Positions 3,275 through 19,829 of a stretch of 64,000 nt of DNA are shown in pieces; the stretch's first letter is position 1, and each line of letters starts with the position of its first letter. The stretch lies in the NCBI RefSeq assembly GCF_044324875.1, contig NZ_CP172185.1; one strand, 5' to 3'. The stretch comes from Escherichia coli (GTDB taxonomy: Bacteria; Pseudomonadota; Gammaproteobacteria; Enterobacterales; Enterobacteriaceae). The translations under genes were made by a program, and so were the position numbers. The notes beneath the pieces are model-generated. The model was not told the DNA's origin and did not search any database. It saw only the letters and a program-made list of their open reading frames with translations.

Positions 3275-4480
3275 ATGACCCTACCAAAAATCAAACAGGT
3301 TCGCGCCTGGTTTACTGGCGGTGCGACAGCAGAAAAAGGCGCTGGCGGCGGTGATTATCACGACCAGGGGGCAAATCACTGGATTGATGATCATATTGCC
3401 ACCCCGATGAGTAAATACCGCGATTACGAGCAGTCACGCCAGTCATTTGGCATTAACGTTCTTGGCACGTTGATTGTTGAAGTCGAAGCAGAAAACGGCC
3501 AGACCGGATTCGCCGTTTCGACAGCCGGTGAAATGGGCTGTTTTATTGTCGAAAAACATCTTAACCGTTTCATTGAGGGTAAATGCGTCAGTGATATCAA
3601 ACTGATCCACGATCAAATGCTCAATGCCACCCTGTATTACTCCGGCTCTGGTGGCCTGGTGATGAATACGATTTCCTGTGTCGATCTGGCTCTGTGGGAT
3701 CTGTTCGGCAAAGTGGTCGGGCTTCCGGTTTATAAACTTTTAGGCGGCGCAGTTCGTGATGAGATTCAGTTCTACGCCACAGGTGCGCGTCCGGATCTGG
3801 CAAAAGAGATGGGCTTTATCGGTGGCAAAATGCCGACGCACTGGGGGCCACATGATGGCGATGCGGGGATCCGCAAAGATGCCGCTATGGTCGCGGATAT
3901 GCGTGAAAAATGCGGTGAGGATTTCTGGTTAATGCTCGACTGCTGGATGAGTCAGGACGTGAACTATGCCACCAAACTGGCCCACGCTTGCGCGCCCTAT
4001 AACCTGAAATGGATCGAAGAGTGCCTGCCGCCACAGCAGTATGAAGGTTATCGCGAACTGAAACGCAACGCGCCAGTCGGAATGATGGTCACCAGCGGTG
4101 AGCATCACGGCACACTGCAATCTTTCCGTACGCTTTCAGAAACCGGTATCGACATTATGCAGCCGGATGTTGGCTGGTGCGGTGGCTTAACCACGCTGGT
4201 GGAAATTGCCGCAATCGCCAAATCCAGAGGGCAACTGGTGGTGCCGCACGGTTCGTCTGTTTACTCTCACCATGCGGTGATCACCTTCACCAATACGCCA
4301 TTCAGCGAATTCCTGATGACCAGCCCGGATTGTTCAACGATGCGTCCGCAATTTGATCCGATTCTGCTTAATGAGCCAGTGCCGGTGAATGGTCGTATTC
4401 ATAAATCAGTGCTTGATAAACCCGGTTTCGGCGTCGAACTCAATCGTGACTGCAATTTGAAACGCCCCTACAGCCACTAA
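3275..4480 (+). CDS. rhmD: L-rhamnonate dehydratase (enolase superfamily)
   Basis: ORF 3263..4480; start chosen at ATG 3275 ([13 protein letters not shown]) with GGAGA SD. Enolase-superfamily features throughout. Confidence 0.85.
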
Positions 4481-13736: not shown

Positions 13737-14813
13737 ATGAAATTGACGCTAAAAAACCTTAGCATGGCGATCATGATGAGTGGAATGATCATGGGAAGCA
13801 GTGCAATGGCGGCGGATAGCAACGAAAAAATAGTCATCGCCCATCGCGGTGCCAGTGGATATTTGCCGGAGCATACGCTGCCAGCAAAAGCGATGGCGTA
13901 TGCGCAGGGAGCGGATTATCTGGAACAAGATTTGGTGATGACCAAAGACGACCATCTGGTTGTCCTGCATGACCATTATCTCGATCGTGTTACTGATGTT
14001 GCCGATCGTTTCCCGGATCGGGCGCGCAAAGACGGTCGTTACTACGCGATAGATTTCACGCTCGATGAAATTAAGTCACTGAAATTTACCGAAGGTTTCG
14101 ATATTGAAAACGGTAAGAAAGTACAGACTTATCCGGGGCGTTTCCCGATGGGTAAATCTGACTTCCGGGTACACACTTTCGAAGAAGAGATTGAATTTGT
14201 TCAGGGGTTAAATCACTCTACCGGGAAAAATATCGGTATCTATCCAGAAATTAAAGCGCCGTGGTTCCATCATCAGGAAGGGAAGGATATTGCGGCAAAA
14301 ACGCTGGAAGTGCTGAAGAAATATGGTTACACCGATAAGGACGACAAAGTTTATTTGCAATGTTTTGATGCCGATGAACTGAAGCGTATTAAGAATGAGC
14401 TGGAACCTAAAATGGGCATGGACCTCAATCTGGTACAGCTGATTGCCTATACCGACTGGAATGAAACGCAGCAGAAACAGCCGGACGGAAGCTGGATTAA
14501 TTACAACTACGACTGGATGTTTAAGCCGGGAGCCATGAAACAGGTGGCGGAATATGCAGATGGTATTGGTCCGGATTACCATATGTTGATTGAGGAGACA
14601 TCGCAGCCGGGTAATATCAAACTCACTGGCATGGTGCAAGATGCTCAGCAGAACAAGCTGGCAGTGCATCCTTATACCGTGCGGTCAGATAAACTGCCTG
14701 AATACACTACTGATGTGAATCAGTTATATGATGCTCTGTATAACAAAGCGGGTGTAAATGGGCTGTTTACTGATTTCCCTGATAAGGCAGTAAAATTCCT
14801 TAATAAAGAGTAA
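13737..14813 (+). CDS. glpQ: Periplasmic glycerophosphodiester phosphodiesterase
   Basis: ORF 13680..14813; start chosen at ATG 13737 (MKLTLKNLSMAIMM...SSAMA signal peptide), 5 nt after the glpT stop with GGAGG SD; HRG catalytic motif (IAHRGASG). Confidence 0.9.
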   Translation: MKLTLKNLSMAIMMSGMIMGSSAMAADSNEKIVIAHRGASGYLPEHTLPAKAMAYAQGADYLEQDLVMTKDDHLVVLHDHYLDRVTDVADRFPDRARKDGRYYAIDFTLDEIKSLKFTEGFDIENGKKVQTYPGRFPMGKSDFRVHTFEEEIEFVQGLNHSTGKNIGIYPEIKAPWFHHQEGKDIAAKTLEVLKKYGYTDKDDKVYLQCFDADELKRIKNELEPKMGMDLNLVQLIAYTDWNETQQKQPDGSWINYNYDWMFKPGAMKQVAEYADGIGPDYHMLIEETSQPGNIKLTGMVQDAQQNKLAVHPYTVRSDKLPEYTTDVNQLYDALYNKAGVNGLFTDFPDKAVKFLNKE

Positions 14814-14822
14814 TGCTATTGC

Positions 14823-14847
14823 AGGATGGCGTTCATGCGCCATCCTC
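14823..14847 (+). terminator. Hairpin downstream of glpQ
   Basis: aggatggcg-ttcat-gcgccatcct inverted repeat immediately after the glpQ stop. Confidence 0.45.
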
Positions 14848-15033
14848 TGCTAAAGCGAAATAATGCTACTTCCGGTTGTTCTATTCATTAACCGGTGCAT
14901 CCTGTTAAAAAAGATGCCAACATATTTGCGTAAAACTCATTCGTTAAGAAAGCTAACACTGGGCATTGTTATTCCTTAAACAGTATGAATTGGGTTCAAT
15001 AATAAATTGTATTGCAGTTTATACTGTAAAGTA

Positions 15034-16140
15034 TTATTCGCATTTCGGGAAAGTAAAGAAAATATTAATGTATCTTATTAATTTATTATATTGTTCTTGA
15101 GTGAATGCTATTTGCACACCTTCAGGATAATATTCACCAGTAATAACCAGTTGTCCATTGCTGTGTTGTACCATTAAACCTTTTTTTTCCTTTGGATCTT
15201 CAAACTTAGAATTATCAAACGTGAAGATGTTATTTTCCTGTTTTGAGTAAGCAAAGAAATCTCGTGTATAGCTGAAACTATCATTTATTAATGGTGCTAA
15301 CTTTTTGTCGGCGATATCGATAAGCTCACCACTTAATTTATTGATGTATTTCATTTGGTTCAATTTTTTCTGCGCTTGTACAATTTGCTTGTAGGTATTT
15401 TTAATTTCCTTAGAAGAATTCTTGAATTTATCATAGCGTTCCACGGAGGATGCGTATTTGTACCATTCTGTATTTTTCTCAGAATGTAGTAGCAGGTCTG
15501 TATATTTTTTTTGATCGCTGTAAAGTTGACTTTTAATACTTTCCTCACTGCTGGTTTTATAAGGTTTATCAGAGCTGTTTATTTTTGAAATGTCTTTTTC
15601 TGTCGGTGACTGGACCGTGTTGTGGATATTTTCTTTTATAACATGTTCATTGATGATGTTAATTGCAGTTTCATATTCATTTAAGTTTATTGTTCTTTGT
15701 GAAATAAACCCTTCTTTGCTTTCGACACTCAAAATACCTTCGTTGTTTTCACCTCGGGTAAAGGTAAGGGTATAGGGTTCATAATCCGCTGCAAATTCAT
15801 TTTTATACGTTATGACATGTTCGACAAAATGTCTTATTGGTACGAAACCATAACTGTGAACGTCAATTTTTTGGGTCTTGATACTATCAATTGCATCTGA
15901 GGCTTTCGTGAAAAAAGCCAATAAATTAGCTATACTGTCTGCTGAAGTTGATAACCCGTATCTACTTTGAGATATTTTTAGAAACTCATCGCAAAAAAAC
16001 TCAAGTTTCGCGGTTTGTTGTGATTCTTTGTAAATTTCTGCTGGTTGCAATTTATTATTTTGTAAAATATTACAGCGAGATAAGTGAATAGATGTATTTG
16101 GAATAAATGATTCCTTGTATTGTGAGTTAACAAGATACAA
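15034..16140 (-). CDS. Hypothetical protein, 368 aa, AT-rich orphan; no recognisable domain, no signal peptide or TM segment
   Basis: Long uninterrupted ORF in a markedly AT-rich stretch (roughly 30% G+C by eye against about 50% around it); Lys/Asn/Tyr/Ile-rich codon usage unlike neighbours; no canonical SD at the first ATG, so the start is uncertain. Confidence 0.55.
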   Translation of the reverse strand: MYLVNSQYKESFIPNTSIHLSRCNILQNNKLQPAEIYKESQQTAKLEFFCDEFLKISQSRYGLSTSADSIANLLAFFTKASDAIDSIKTQKIDVHSYGFVPIRHFVEHVITYKNEFAADYEPYTLTFTRGENNEGILSVESKEGFISQRTINLNEYETAINIINEHVIKENIHNTVQSPTEKDISKINSSDKPYKTSSEESIKSQLYSDQKKYTDLLLHSEKNTEWYKYASSVERYDKFKNSSKEIKNTYKQIVQAQKKLNQMKYINKLSGELIDIADKKLAPLINDSFSYTRDFFAYSKQENNIFTFDNSKFEDPKEKKGLMVQHSNGQLVITGEYYPEGVQIAFTQEQYNKLIRYINIFFTFPKCE

Positions 16141-16569
16141 TCTAATCTTTGCAAAATATATTCACTATCAAATTTAGCTCATTTTATTACGAAGACCTTT
16201 ACGCATGGTAGAAAGTATCATTATTGTTAATAAATACGGTAATAAGTAACAAACAGATATTGATAACTTCCCTGAAAAGTTACTAGGTATCCCACTTGAA
16301 GATTGAGAATGGCTCCAGAGTAAACTGTGTACTGTTCGCCGGAGTGTCATTACTCTCAACGATCGGTTTTGACAGTGAGTCGGGCGCTTCATACCGATTT
16401 CTACCTGGAGTCATTGTCACTTCTCCCAACTGGATAAATATATATCGCCAATTCACAAAGTGGGCCAAAATCAGGTGAAAACGAATTATTACGCCTGGTA
16501 AAGGCTATAGTACAACTAAGTGTGGCGAATCAGGCAGTCTTGCATTTGTCATCAATCTCATGTCTTACA

Positions 16570-17448
16570 TCAAATTTTTCCACTCACCACGAGTTGTTCC
16601 GTACACATTTGTAGTAAAAACAGTGGACTGCCTTCTACCGGTTTTTCTTTAGCCAACAACGAAATCTGTCGATAGAAGGTTGGTTCGAGAGGAACGGAAC
16701 ACAATTCACCTGCAATGGTTTTCAGCGTTAACTCTGGTAATAAGGCGATACCTAATCCCTGTCGAATAAAACTGATCGCTGTATCCGGGTGATTAAATTC
16801 ATATTTTATCTGTGGGGTAATATTCTTTTCTTTAAATAGTGCCATAATGCTTAATTCATAGCGTCCTTTACTAATGATTAATGGTTCACCCATTAATTCT
16901 TCCACTGTAATAGTGCTGTTTTTTGCCAGAGCATGGTTGGGCGGTAACACTACGGTGAATTTATCCTGATAAATGGGCACGGAGTACATTCCGCTCACCG
17001 GAAAATGAACAAAACCGGCATCAATGGATTCATTCTGAAGGGAATCAATAATCGCTGTGCTATTTTCCTCAAAAGGAATAATTTTTATATTCGGATGATG
17101 AATTTCAAAGTAGCGAATCACAACCGGTAAGATACAGGCGCAGACGCTGGGGAAACAACCAAGTCTCAGCGTTCTTTGAGGGTTCTGCTTTTCCTGCTCG
17201 GCTATCTCTTTTACTGCGTTCACTTCCCGATTAATGGCGCGCAGATGATGCATAATGCGGTGACCTGCAGAGGTCAGTTGTATAGCTTTACGGCGATCGC
17301 GTAACAGTATATTCACGCCAAGTTCTTGTTCGAGGGCAGCAATTGCCTGACTTACCGCCGACTGCGTCATGAACAATCGTTTGCTGGCTTCAGTAAAGCC
17401 ACCGTAATCCAGCACGGCGAGTAAAGAATTTATTTGGGTAAGAGTCAT
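16570..17448 (-). CDS. LysR-family transcriptional regulator (intact yfaH-like gene)
   Basis: 292-aa ORF with N-terminal LysR HTH (FTEASKRLFMTQSAVSQAIAALEQELG) and C-terminal substrate-binding domain; divergent from an MFS gene. Confidence 0.8.
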   Translation of the reverse strand: MTLTQINSLLAVLDYGGFTEASKRLFMTQSAVSQAIAALEQELGVNILLRDRRKAIQLTSAGHRIMHHLRAINREVNAVKEIAEQEKQNPQRTLRLGCFPSVCACILPVVIRYFEIHHPNIKIIPFEENSTAIIDSLQNESIDAGFVHFPVSGMYSVPIYQDKFTVVLPPNHALAKNSTITVEELMGEPLIISKGRYELSIMALFKEKNITPQIKYEFNHPDTAISFIRQGLGIALLPELTLKTIAGELCSVPLEPTFYRQISLLAKEKPVEGSPLFLLQMCTEQLVVSGKI

Positions 17449-17469
17449 TAGAGTTTGCTAATCAATAAT

Positions 17470-17484
17470 ATTAAAACGATTAAT
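17470..17484. promoter_or_regulatory. Candidate LysR-type binding motif (T-N11-A-like dyad) in the LysR/MFS divergent region
   Basis: attaaaacgattaat = ATTAA-N5-TTAAT inverted repeat in the 151-bp divergent intergenic region. Confidence 0.35.
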
Positions 17485-17599
17485 TTCTCTAATAGCATGC
17501 CGCCATTTATACTTCTGTTCTGCAAAGTACATCACAATTTGACGCAACCGCAGTAACGGGAGTGTTGTCTGCGTGCGTCATCCTGACAGGCGGTAGGGT

Positions 17600-18790
17600 A
17601 TGAAAGAGAAGTTATGGACGAAGGATTTTTGGGCAATAACCATCATCAGCTTTATTATTTTCTTCGTCTTTTATGTTTTACTAACATTGTTGCCAATTTA
17701 TATCTCTGACCGCTTGCATGCCTCTCCTGATAAAGCAGGTTTGTTGGTGACTTTATTTTTAATTGCGGCGATTGTTATTCGCCCCTTTGCCGGGCAATGG
17801 GTGGGTAAATATTCGAATAAAACTATTCTGGTGCTCTCTTCTCTGGCCTTTTTGTTGGTCACTGCGTTGTATCCTTTTTGCCTCTCAATTGAATCACTGC
17901 TTTTTATTCGGGTGCTTCATGGTATTACCTTCGGGGTTATCACTACGGTAAAAGGAACGATTTCCGCGCGGCTGATCCCGGCCTCCCGACGTGGGGAGGG
18001 CATCAGTTTTTTCTCTTTGGCAATGGGGCTGGCAATGGTGGTCGGGCCGTGGATTGGCCTGAATATGGCGCGCTGGGAGGCCTTTAATATGGCTTTCTGG
18101 TTATGCACCGGCGTGGCAGCGGTGGGGATTATTCTGTCGCTGATTATGACAGTGCCGCCGGTTATCAGCCATGCTGATGGTTCAACGCCGAAAATGGGCT
18201 TCGCCGCCATGTTCGATCGCGCGGCGTTGCCATTTGCGATGGTCACCTTTTTTATGACCTTTTCGTATGCCGGGGTTTCTGCTTTTCTGGCGCTTTATGC
18301 ACGCGAACTTAACCTGATGTCGGCAGCCAGTAATTTCCTGCTTTGCTACGCTATCTTCCTGATGATTTGCCGTACCTTTACCGGCAATGTCTGCGACAAA
18401 AAAGGACCGAAATATGTGGTTTACCCTTGCCTTGTGTTCTTTACGGTAGGACTGGTGGTTCTCGGCTACACCCAGGGAAGCATAATGATGGTTGTTTCTG
18501 GCGCATTGATTGGTATCGGGTATGGTTCCGTGACGCCAGTTTTTCAGACGCAGATTATCAGTTCAGTGGAACCGCATAAAATCGGTGTCGCAAACTCCCT
18601 CTTCTTCAATGCGATGGATGCAGGCCTGGCGCTGGGAGCCTGTGTGATGGGGATGATGGTTGCACATACTGGCTACCGAATGATTTATCTGCTGGGTGCA
18701 CTATTAGTGGTAGTGGCTGGTGGAGTCTATGCGCTGCAAATGAAGGGTAAAAGCGGTGTCGCGCTAGTAGTGGCAAAAGAAATTCATTAA
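17600..18790 (+). CDS. MFS transporter (12-TM), substrate unknown
   Basis: 396-aa highly hydrophobic ORF with MFS-like organisation, divergently paired with the LysR regulator. Confidence 0.8.
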   Translation: MKEKLWTKDFWAITIISFIIFFVFYVLLTLLPIYISDRLHASPDKAGLLVTLFLIAAIVIRPFAGQWVGKYSNKTILVLSSLAFLLVTALYPFCLSIESLLFIRVLHGITFGVITTVKGTISARLIPASRRGEGISFFSLAMGLAMVVGPWIGLNMARWEAFNMAFWLCTGVAAVGIILSLIMTVPPVISHADGSTPKMGFAAMFDRAALPFAMVTFFMTFSYAGVSAFLALYARELNLMSAASNFLLCYAIFLMICRTFTGNVCDKKGPKYVVYPCLVFFTVGLVVLGYTQGSIMMVVSGALIGIGYGSVTPVFQTQIISSVEPHKIGVANSLFFNAMDAGLALGACVMGMMVAHTGYRMIYLLGALLVVVAGGVYALQMKGKSGVALVVAKEIH

Positions 18791-18870
18791 TACGACACGT
18801 TTCATTAAGATTTTTCGCAGGTAACCACCTATAGTCATTGTCGTAAATAAAAAATGACAGGCGATAGGGT

Positions 18871-19521
18871 ATGGCAGTTTCAGCAAAGCACGACGAATTT
18901 AATCACTGGTGGGCAACAGAGGGCGACTGGGTTGAAGAGCCTAACTATCGCCGTAATGGTATGAGCGGGGTGCAATGCGTCGAGCGCAACGGCAAAAAGC
19001 TATATGTAAAGCGCATGACGCATCATCTGTTTCATTCCGTACGTTATCCGTTCGGCCGACCAACGATTGTCCGTGAGGTTGCGGTAATTAAAGAACTGGA
19101 ACGGGCTGGTGTCATCGTGCCGAAGATTGTTTTTGGTGAAGCGGTGAAAATTGAGGGGGAATGGCGCGCGTTGCTGGTGACTGAAGATATGGCGGGGTTC
19201 ATCAGCATTGCTGACTGGTATGCCCGGCATGCAGTAACGCCCTATTCTGACGAAGTACGGCAAGCCATGTTGAAAGCAGTGGCGCTGGCGTTTAAGAAAA
19301 TGCATAGCGTTAATCGTCAGCATGGCTGTTGCTATGTTCGCCATATCTATGTGAAAACAGAAGGTAAGGCAGAAGCTGGATTTCTTGATCTGGAGAAAAG
19401 TCGTCGCCGCTTGCGTCGCGATAAAGCGATTAATCATGACTTCCGCCAGCTGGAAAAATATCTGGAGCCGATCCCCAAAGCGGACTGGGAGCAGGTGAAA
19501 GCGTATTACTACGCCATGTAA
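18871..19521 (+). CDS. inaA: InaA, Kdo/lipopolysaccharide-kinase-like protein
   Basis: 216-aa ORF MAVSAKHDEFNHWWATEGDWVEE...; matches InaA as I recall it. Confidence 0.8.
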   Translation: MAVSAKHDEFNHWWATEGDWVEEPNYRRNGMSGVQCVERNGKKLYVKRMTHHLFHSVRYPFGRPTIVREVAVIKELERAGVIVPKIVFGEAVKIEGEWRALLVTEDMAGFISIADWYARHAVTPYSDEVRQAMLKAVALAFKKMHSVNRQHGCCYVRHIYVKTEGKAEAGFLDLEKSRRRLRRDKAINHDFRQLEKYLEPIPKADWEQVKAYYYAM

Positions 19522-19524
19522 TCG

Positions 19525-19565
19525 TTGTAGGCCAGATAATACGCGTAAGCGTCGTATCTGGCGCT
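19525..19565. repeat. REP-like palindromic element between convergent inaA and yfaE
   Basis: aggccagataatacgcgtaagcgtcgtatctggcg, an imperfect palindrome of REP type. Confidence 0.4.
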
Positions 19566-19574
19566 AGTACCCGA

Positions 19575-19829
19575 TCACAACTCGATTTCAATATCGCCTT
19601 TTGCCCGGCAACAACAAGGCAAAATTTCCCCCGGCTGAATAAAGGCTAACGGTTCGGCAATCCAGTCCACCTGGCCTGCAACAAGGCGCGTGCGACAGGA
19701 ACCGCAGTAACCTTCGCGGCACTGGTACTCAACCGCCACATTGTGGGATTCCAGCGCCGCCAGAAGGGAAGGGTGTTCATCCTGGCACAGCAGTTGTGTG
19801 CCAGTGATGCGCAGGGTAATGCGAGCCAT
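19575..19829 (-). CDS. yfaE: 2Fe-2S ferredoxin YfaE (NrdB cofactor maintenance)
   Basis: 84-aa ORF with CxxxxCxxC...C ferredoxin cysteines (CREGYCGSC...CCC); start overlaps the nrdB stop by 1 nt. Confidence 0.85.
   Translation of the reverse strand: MARITLRITGTQLLCQDEHPSLLAALESHNVAVEYQCREGYCGSCRTRLVAGQVDWIAEPLAFIQPGEILPCCCRAKGDIEIEL

Follow-up and report, generated by a model that had tools for sequence, protein, structure and literature searches.

The 64,000-nt stretch of Escherichia coli DNA analysed here (the window) carries an intact, uncharacterised pair of divergent genes, encoding a LysR-type transcriptional regulator and an MFS transporter, of which K-12 keeps only a remnant. The pair is ancestral to the Escherichia/Salmonella/Citrobacter/Klebsiella group. 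It is an ordinary kind of module, though a real one, and we consider it somewhat more probable than the contrary that it is a self-contained, effector-responsive export module, activated and autorepressed by its regulator.

The regulator gene (positions 16,570 to 17,448, minus strand) encodes a 292 aa protein, and the transporter gene (17,600 to 18,790, plus strand) a 396 aa, 12-TMS-type protein, with a spacer of 151 bp (17,449 to 17,599) separating the two starts. These sizes, and the classic divergent LysR/target arrangement, had been read from the sequence in the initial annotation, and the ORF list, the Pfam matches and the orthologues agree with that reading. The regulator contains an HTH_1 domain (PF00126, residues 3 to 63, E-value 4e-18, 65.5 bits for a cut-off of 26.6) and a LysR_substrate domain (PF03466, residues 88 to 267 of 292, E-value 2.9e-36), and the structures of CysB, BenM and OxyR align with it over its full length. 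With a HTH, an effector domain and a T-N11-A dyad beside a divergent gene, it has the attributes of transcriptional regulators of the LysR type (LTTRs). None of the named NCBIfam LTTR equivalogs tried, which included CidR, AlsR, CysB and OxyR, reached its cut-off, the best scores being those of GltC (128.3 for a cut-off of 350), CynR (117.1 for 277) and HcaR (110 for 356). The transporter matches MFS_1 (PF07690, residues 14 to 340, E-value 6.4e-58), and its hydropathy peaks fit approximately 12 TMS with a central loop around residues 183 to 207. In the O157 Sakai annotation the regulator is named yfaH (ECs_3122), and the transporter (ECs_3121) is called “antibiotic efflux protein”. A 266-aa regulator variant (P0018), present on more than 1000 contigs, was considered as a truncation and rejected, as it corresponds to an alternative start call at Met27; the O157 RefSeq regulator has the full 292 aa. 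No terminator was called after either gene by a generic promoter/terminator scan.

Between inaA and glpQ, MG1655 contains only the pseudogene yfaH (b2238). By direct alignment, K-12 matches the window at 16,558 to 16,816, with 91.5% DNA identity, and again from 18,684 on, everything in between being missing. The leftovers are a C-terminal fragment of the regulator gene (yfaH) and the final ∼100 bp of the transporter gene. No intact pair exists in MG1655, which has the remnant alone, and the initial annotation had rightly placed no more than a LysR fragment at this site in K-12. The fragment belongs to the same gene: the NCBIfam model NF007272, built on the 68-aa K-12 YfaH, gave 148.7 bits with the regulator (cut-off 139), its positions 2 to 68 aligning to residues 226 to 292. 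What K-12 has lost is the HTH domain, the greater part of the effector domain, the operator and nearly all of the transporter gene. Comparison of the window and MG1655 junction sequences revealed an 8-bp direct repeat, TTTATCTG, with a left copy at 16,805 to 16,812 and a right copy at 18,684 to 18,691, between which K-12 is devoid of 1879 bp. A microhomology deletion of 1.88 kb accounts for the K-12-type loss.

The glpQ-inaA interval was compared across genomes, and the pair was found to be ancestral there, and deleted in K-12. The divergent pair adjoins yfaE-nrdBA in Salmonella, Citrobacter, Klebsiella and Kluyvera, and Superficieibacter also carries the regulator and the operator. Flanks differ among genera, with glpQ or glpA on one side and inaA or yfaE on the other, while divergence and adjacency are kept in every genus examined. 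Regulator orthologues of the same length share 70–80% aa identity in Salmonella, Citrobacter and Klebsiella; for the transporter, identity is 84–86% in the same genera and Kluyvera. The dN/dS ratios, 0.04–0.13 for the regulator and 0.03–0.08 for the transporter, point to purifying selection on the pair. Because of this selection, and because synteny extends to four or more further enterobacterial genera, the pair is ancestral, core-like DNA in the course of being lost by E. coli, and not acquired DNA. It does not have the marks of a genomic island: sister genera carry it at the same site, the GC content of the transporter gene (48%) is typical, no mobility genes accompany the pair, and no copies were found on true plasmids.

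The DNA next to the pair is of another kind. Genome comparison and GC profile delimit an AT-rich insertion (14,847 to 16,557, minus strand, 30–34% GC) which is found in E. coli only, and which K-12, E. coli L003, E. coli L013, Salmonella and Citrobacter lack. It contains an orphan ORF of 356 to 368 aa (368 aa here; 15,034 to 16,140, minus strand), for which no match was found in Pfam, NCBIfam, PHROG or PADLOC, and whose homologues are confined to E. coli. Its dN/dS is 0.345, it shows a compensated double frameshift, its start codon is not conserved, and its AlphaFold model is poor (pLDDT 39.7). The orphan is present in 1052 of 5426 genomes; orphan and pair occur together in 710, the pair alone in ∼505, and the orphan without an intact pair in ∼340. 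The presence of the orphan insertion varies independently of the pair, and it is separate from the regulator-transporter module. The initial annotation had united both in one deletion-prone accessory block. Its deletion-prone part stands, but synteny, selection and the independent distributions speak against accessory DNA that includes the orphan. That regulator, transporter and orphan were acquired horizontally as one such block would fit the variable presence in E. coli, the low GC content of the orphan and the somewhat low one of the regulator; we nevertheless regard it as extremely improbable, given that the other genera where the pair is syntenic all lack the orphan, that the two are distributed independently (L003, L011 and L013 included), and that mobility genes and true plasmid matches are absent. 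An island-like composition and restriction were found for the orphan block alone.

Among complete E. coli genomes, 1215 of 5426 have kept the intact pair, which is thus absent in 78%. At least two independent deletions have removed it. The two pieces retained by K-12 recur in most E. coli genomes, and a second, larger type of deletion, from glpQ to inaA, is found in other lineages; in some strains an IS1 insertion is present at the locus. The locus is therefore deletion-prone in E. coli, as had been proposed. Since the pair is lost in 78% of genomes, its function is dispensable in this species, and the module has been lost repeatedly. Such losses, of at least two types, together with the low GC3 of the regulator gene (0.41) and the absence of a Shine-Dalgarno sequence ahead of it, could suggest that the E. 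coli pair is a functionless remnant heading for deletion, and intact in the window by chance. This is very unlikely, because dN/dS is low within E. coli (regulator 0.126 and transporter 0.034 between the window and O157; 0.04 and 0.03 with the divergent E. coli F8111), both ORFs have exactly their ancestral lengths, and the operator is intact.

Two classes of regulator alleles were observed in E. coli, with 75.8% nucleotide identity and a dS of ∼2.6, a divergence as great as that separating E. coli from Salmonella. The transporter genes beside both classes are nearly identical (96.4%), and the operator is unchanged. One could imagine niche-dependent or balancing selection acting on the module in E. 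coli, in place of simple decay, a proposal that we hold to be quite unlikely. If it were true, the regulator alleles would sense different effectors or, alternatively, a cost or benefit of the exporter would depend on a given gut or host metabolite.

Footprinting of the spacer with eight sequences uncovered the arrangement ATTAG-N6-CTAAT-N7-ATTAA-N5-TTAAT-N5-TAAT-N14-TAnnnT, whose spacing is identical in all of them. Invariant positions amount to 28 of 45 in the operator block, 0 of 14 in the stretch separating it from the final hexamer, and 12 of 86 in the remainder. Three dyads make up the block. Dyad A (ATTAG-N6-CTAAT, 17,447 to 17,462), with half-sites invariant in 7 of the 8 sequences and a 6-nt spacer that varies freely, overlaps the regulator start codon, two bases of which belong to the dyad. 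It is found once in the 64-kb window (0.04 expected), and is of the T-N10/12-A type, not the canonical T-N11-A. Dyad B (ATTAA-N5-TTAAT, ATTAAAACGATTAAT, 17,470 to 17,484) is the one that had been noticed in the initial annotation; it is of the T-N11-A type, is present as a single copy in the window (0.05 expected from shuffles), and is conserved across genera, its half-sites being invariant in 8 of 8 sequences. Dyad C (ATTA-N7-TAAT, 17,479 to 17,493), a palindrome also of the T-N11-A type, shares ATTAAT with dyad B and is kept in 7 of 8 sequences, the F8111 allele having TTAT.

Exactly 14 nt past dyad C, in all eight sequences, lies a predicted sigma-70 -10 hexamer for the transporter, TATACT (17,508 to 17,513, plus strand), the T1, A2 and T6 of which are invariant. 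The transporter transcription start site (TSS) is predicted near 17,520, and dyad distances are all given relative to this predicted site. Dyad centres fall at ∼−65 (A), ∼−43 (B) and ∼−34 (C), the latter overlapping a weak -35 region, TTCTCT (17,485 to 17,490). Because the -35 is weak, a generic promoter scan of the spacer called no promoter, and our promoter model is based on conservation instead of that scan. In classic LysR operators, a recognition site lies near -65 and activation sites near -35, with a T-N11-A box. The dyads resemble this architecture by the position of their centres upstream of a conserved -10, and by the overlap of one site with the regulator's own 5′ end, as for autorepression; they differ by the 6-nt spacing of the distal dyad A, instead of 5 or 7. 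Dyad A is proposed as both the recognition site and a putative site of autorepression.

Other elements were looked for in and around the spacer. A conserved block, ATCACAATTTGACGCA (17,531 to 17,546), with TCACA and T.ACG invariant across genera, would be part of the 5′ leader; no Rfam family corresponds to it, and over 14,700 to 19,000 the sole Rfam match was a sub-threshold, chance one to a Drosophila lncRNA. A CRP site (TGCAA-N6-TCACA) was rejected because conservation of its left half does not extend to Salmonella, and a leaderless regulator mRNA because no conserved -10 is placed at the right distance. Genome contigs were also scanned with the operator pattern ATTAANNNNNTTAATTTNNCTAAT, which is AT-rich and gives chance matches in AT-rich genomes; the useful ones among the matches listed were the loci of Citrobacter and Superficieibacter alone, and the scan is uninformative on a wider regulon.

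The operator block adjoins the regulator start codon and extends over it, and distant targets are common among LysR regulators. The dyads might thus serve only to autoregulate the regulator, with its targets elsewhere and the transporter a mere neighbour having its own promoter. We find this quite unlikely. Divergence and adjacency of the two genes persist in all genera examined despite differing flanks, the -10-like hexamer facing the transporter is in exact register with dyad C, and the dyad centres have the standard geometry of activation.

We next considered the direction of transport. The best named NCBIfam relatives of the transporter are exporters (YfcJ/YhhS-type, CntE, MxcK, Cmx and Tet), all scoring below cut-offs: 110.8 for 374 and 85.4 for 364 with the YfcJ/YhhS subfamily models (PRK05122 and PRK12382), and 72.7 for 235 with another family model. 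Among solved structures, those of NorA and SotB come nearest, the similarity to NorA (4e-11) covering the N-terminal half only. Like YfcJ/YhhS-type proteins and DHA1-like exporters (SotB, NorA, CntE), which are its closest named relatives when the full length is considered, it is a 12-TMS protein of ∼400 aa with a GP motif in TM5. This is a partial, antiporter-like motif C (GLAMVVGPWIG at aa 143). A motif-A-like sequence, GNVCDKKGPK at aa 262, is found in loop 8-9 only, the motif being degenerate in loop 2-3. The transporter differs from these exporters in scoring far below every family cut-off. Outside its orthologue group, the next relative shows 55% identity and the others at most 37%; the transporter belongs to an orthologue group of its own, restricted to Enterobacterales. 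The 55%-identical homologue (P0165, on a Firmicute-like contig) was discarded as a clue to operator or effector: it too has a divergent LysR gene, but the protein encoded there is only 24% identical to the window regulator. More distant homologues adjoin TetR and MarR regulators, beside which efflux pumps usually sit. No catabolic enzyme gene was found beside the pair in any genus examined.

The same circuit could also control an importer, the MFS protein being a symporter for the nutrient or signal sensed, as with PunR-PunC or CynR-CynX. The PunR (YdhB) regulator, of the LysR type, activates the divergent MFS gene punC (YdhC) in response to a small molecule, through a palindromic operator in the shared spacer which was identified by phylogenetic footprinting, and PunC is described as a transporter through which purines/nucleosides are taken up (PMC8376909). 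This layout, a divergent LysR gene and a single MFS gene with a conserved palindromic operator between them, is identical to ours. PunR-punC shows that such an arrangement can work in the proposed way. The two systems differ in that the proteins are not orthologous, that PunR-PunC is kept in K-12 where the window pair is deleted, that the PunR operator is of a TCAAwAwwwTTGA type and not composed of ATTAG/ATTAA/TAAT dyads, and that PunC handles purines and nucleosides, whereas export is favoured for the window transporter. Import would also agree with the weak similarity of the regulator to CynR and HcaR, regulators of catabolic and uptake operons, and with weak matches of the transporter C-terminal half to symporters (aromatic acid/H+, PgtP, MhpT). 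It is nonetheless rather unlikely, as the full-length and top-scoring matches of the transporter are exporters, linked catabolic genes are lacking in all genera examined, and TetR and MarR regulators accompany the distant homologues. Because the transporter resembles exporters (NorA, SotB, YfcJ/YhhS-like), efflux activated by the regulator is the most likely function. The “uptake or efflux” of the initial annotation is thereby narrowed towards efflux, by similarity only.

In the export circuit that we favour, intact YfaH would bind the fixed-register operator at dyad A and at the overlapping dyads B and C. Bound at dyad A, over its own start codon, it would repress its own synthesis. With its small-molecule effector bound, it would activate the weak-(-35) sigma-70 promoter and so drive the divergent MFS protein, which would most likely expel the inducer or a related compound by proton antiport.

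A literature search found no functional study of yfaH, of STM2280/STM2281, which we take to be the Salmonella locus tags for the pair, or of ECs3121-3123. The O157 and Salmonella locus tags were not found in any paper. In published work, yfaH appears only as a neutral marker site, and the gene goes unmentioned in a 2026 survey of Salmonella LTTRs, both in the main text and in the supplement. As K-12 is naturally null for a pair that O157:H7 and about one fifth of E. coli genomes have kept, functional genomics based on this strain has never sampled the pair. The fixed-register operator and predicted promoter make a testable circuit in which the inducer and substrate may be sought, with K-12 as a clean gain-of-function host. 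Otherwise this is one further uncharacterised LysR/MFS pair, which leaves the understanding of such modules unchanged.

The regulator and the transporter lie back to back, as a 292-aa LysR-type ORF on the minus strand (16570..17448) and a 396-aa MFS ORF on the plus strand (17600..18790), separated by a 151-bp spacer; this layout and its dyad had been placed accurately in the initial annotation. Both LysR domains are present in the regulator (HTH_1, 4e-18; LysR_substrate, 2.9e-36), and the transporter matches MFS_1 (6.4e-58). The two proteins are members of the LysR and MFS superfamilies outside every named subfamily, the transporter scoring well under the cut-offs of all named MFS subfamilies. 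In the O157:H7 Sakai annotation, the names yfaH and “antibiotic efflux protein” are already in use for them. Gene order is glpT, glpQ, a 368-aa ORF, LysR, MFS, inaA (18871-19521, within 18791-19574), yfaE, nrdB and nrdA, and no family was matched by the 368-aa ORF between glpQ and the LysR gene.

The 90% cluster of the transporter contains proteins from Salmonella, Citrobacter and E. coli. The order is glpTQ, LysR, MFS, yfaE, nrdBA in Salmonella Djakarta and Citrobacter werkmanii, and glpCBA, LysR, MFS, yfaE, nrdBA in the Klebsiella oxytoca group and Kluyvera. Orthologues across these genera are 84-86% (transporter) and 68-85% (regulator) identical, while beyond this group identities drop to 55%, next to at most 37%, for the transporter, and to 51%, then 43%, then at most 36% for the regulator. 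Values of dN/dS are low (0.04-0.13 for the regulator, 0.03-0.08 for the transporter). Together, synteny, orthologue identity and low dN/dS lead us to conclude that the pair is ancestral, syntenic and selectively maintained, and that it is being lost by E. coli, not gained. The accessory status first proposed for it is thereby contradicted: comparison of the glpQ-inaA interval upheld the K-12 fragment and the variable presence, but not one accessory block, since the pair is ancestral. Among these genera, inaA is found at the transporter/yfaE site in E. coli only; in Salmonella, Citrobacter, Klebsiella and Kluyvera, the transporter gene and yfaE are convergent and 1-3 bp apart. No terminator-like site was found 3′ of the transporter gene. 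Outside Enterobacterales, the nearest relative of the transporter (55% identity), encoded on a short AT-rich contig of Firmicute-like character (locus L014, 583-2822), is also divergent from a LysR gene. The LysR protein there shares just 24% identity with the one in the window, so the same layout formed with an unrelated regulator.

All that MG1655 has between inaA and glpQ is the pseudogene yfaH (b2238), a fragment of the regulator gene as anticipated by the initial annotation. K-12 aligns to the window over 14001-14846, 16558-16816 (91.5% identity) and 18684-19600, and residues 226-292 of the intact regulator match the NCBIfam model of the 68-aa K-12 YfaH above its cut-off. At the inner junction, TTTATCTG is found in both parental copies (16805-16812 and 18684-18691), and once in K-12. 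The K-12 loss is a 1879-bp microhomology deletion, which removed the HTH domain and most of the effector domain of the regulator and the entire spacer, and left about 100 bp of the transporter gene. On the outer side, the window and K-12 differ by the AT-rich orphan block (14847-16557), and the regulator 3′ end of K-12 directly adjoins the glpQ terminator hairpin.

Among 5426 complete E. coli genomes, 1215 have at least 80% of the pair, 4366 some piece of it (mostly the two pieces of the K-12 pattern), and 1060 no remnant; the orphan block is present in 1052, and together with the pair in 710. Example loci and these counts show either element alone, so orphan and pair vary independently, and the single accessory block initially proposed does not hold: loci L003 and L013 carry the pair without the orphan, and L011 has an orphan cut by IS1 together with a K-12-type deletion of the pair. 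The IS1A copy (L011, 2197-2894) interrupts the orphan ORF in strains such as WCHEC115106. A second, independent deletion, in locus L010, spans 14846-18771. Both deletion types leave the 80-bp transporter-inaA spacer and at least 19 bp of the transporter 3′ end, perhaps because this stretch contains the inaA promoter. The pair was not found on true plasmids: its only “plasmid” matches are records of 0.37-4.9 Mb, far above ordinary plasmid size, all of which are typed as non-mobilizable and three of which are as large as a chromosome.

The orphan block (14847-16557, GC 30-34%) runs from the glpQ terminator to the regulator stop codon, and encodes on the minus strand an ORF of 356-368 aa (15034..16140). 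No homologue outside E. coli was found among 5.8 billion proteins, nor any match in Pfam, NCBIfam, PHROG or PADLOC. Compared with O157, the ORF shows a dN/dS of 0.345, a double frameshift that is compensated, and ATT in the window where O157 has its ATG start. The AlphaFold model is unusable (pLDDT 39.7). Directly 3′ of the glpQ stop is a hairpin with a 9-bp stem, AGGATGGCG-ttcatg-CGCCATCCT (14823-14846), at whose 3′ edge the block is precisely inserted. Where the orphan is absent, glpQ and the regulator gene converge on this hairpin, which could then be a bidirectional terminator.

Two allele classes of the regulator exist in E. coli (16570-17448 in the window; 3474-4352 in locus L002), 75.8% identical in nucleotides and 84.6% in amino acids, with a dS of about 2.6, a divergence as great as that between E. 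coli and Salmonella. The adjoining transporter genes share 96.4% identity, and both classes keep the operator. GC3 is unusually low in the window-type allele (0.41 versus 0.53). The rarer, divergent class is present in about 98 genomes, and no closer relative or donor was found in other species. In genomes that have the pair but lack the orphan, such as IR53017 (L003, 1634-2533), the annotated regulator has 299 aa and ends in ...VESGKFDMRQDGA in place of ...VVSGKI, which means that different locus states use different stop codons.

The dyad ATTAA-N5-TTAAT noted in the initial annotation occurs once in the 64-kb window (17470-17484, dyad B; 0.05 expected), inside a conserved 45-bp block adjoining the regulator ATG. 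In alignments of six, later eight, spacer sequences, invariant positions number 28/45 in this block, 0/14 in the next 14-nt spacer and 12/86 in the remaining leader. One regular expression, ATTAG-N6-CTAAT-N7-ATTAA-N5-TTAAT-N5-TAAT-N14-TAnnnT, matches all eight; operator half-sites are constant, and intervening spacers variable. The terminal hexamer (TATACT, TACACT, TATAAT or TATTAT) keeps T1, A2 and T6 of a sigma-70 -10 element. With a putative TSS at ~17520, dyads A (17447-17462), B and C (17479-17493) would be centred at ~-65.5, -43 and -34, and a poor -35 region, TTCTCT, would lie inside dyad C. Such spacing is the textbook geometry of LysR-type activation. Dyad A overlaps the regulator start codon, and this position argues for a predicted autorepression. 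From this arrangement we infer the TSS, regulator binding and whether regulation is positive or negative. No Shine-Dalgarno sequence precedes the regulator start, which is probably why some gene callers place it at Met27. In the predicted transporter 5′ leader, a block not accounted for by the LysR operator model, ATCACAATTTGACGCA (17531-17546), has TCACA and T.ACG invariant across genera; it has no Rfam match.

The best full-length matches of the transporter are exporters (YfcJ/YhhS-type, the staphylopine exporter CntE, and multidrug, myxochelin, chloramphenicol and tetracycline pumps), and among solved structures it is closest to NorA and the sugar exporter SotB. TetR and MarR regulators adjoin distant homologues, a GP motif is found in TM5, and in none of the genera examined is the pair accompanied by enzyme genes. 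For these reasons, we lean, on sequence comparison, towards inducible efflux as the probable function; uptake, the other direction of transport, appears unlikely. That a LysR/MFS pair of this layout works is known from PunR-punC (PMC8376909), which the present pair resembles in this respect, as do many others; what is new here is that the pair is ancestral, how it was deleted, and the register of its operator.
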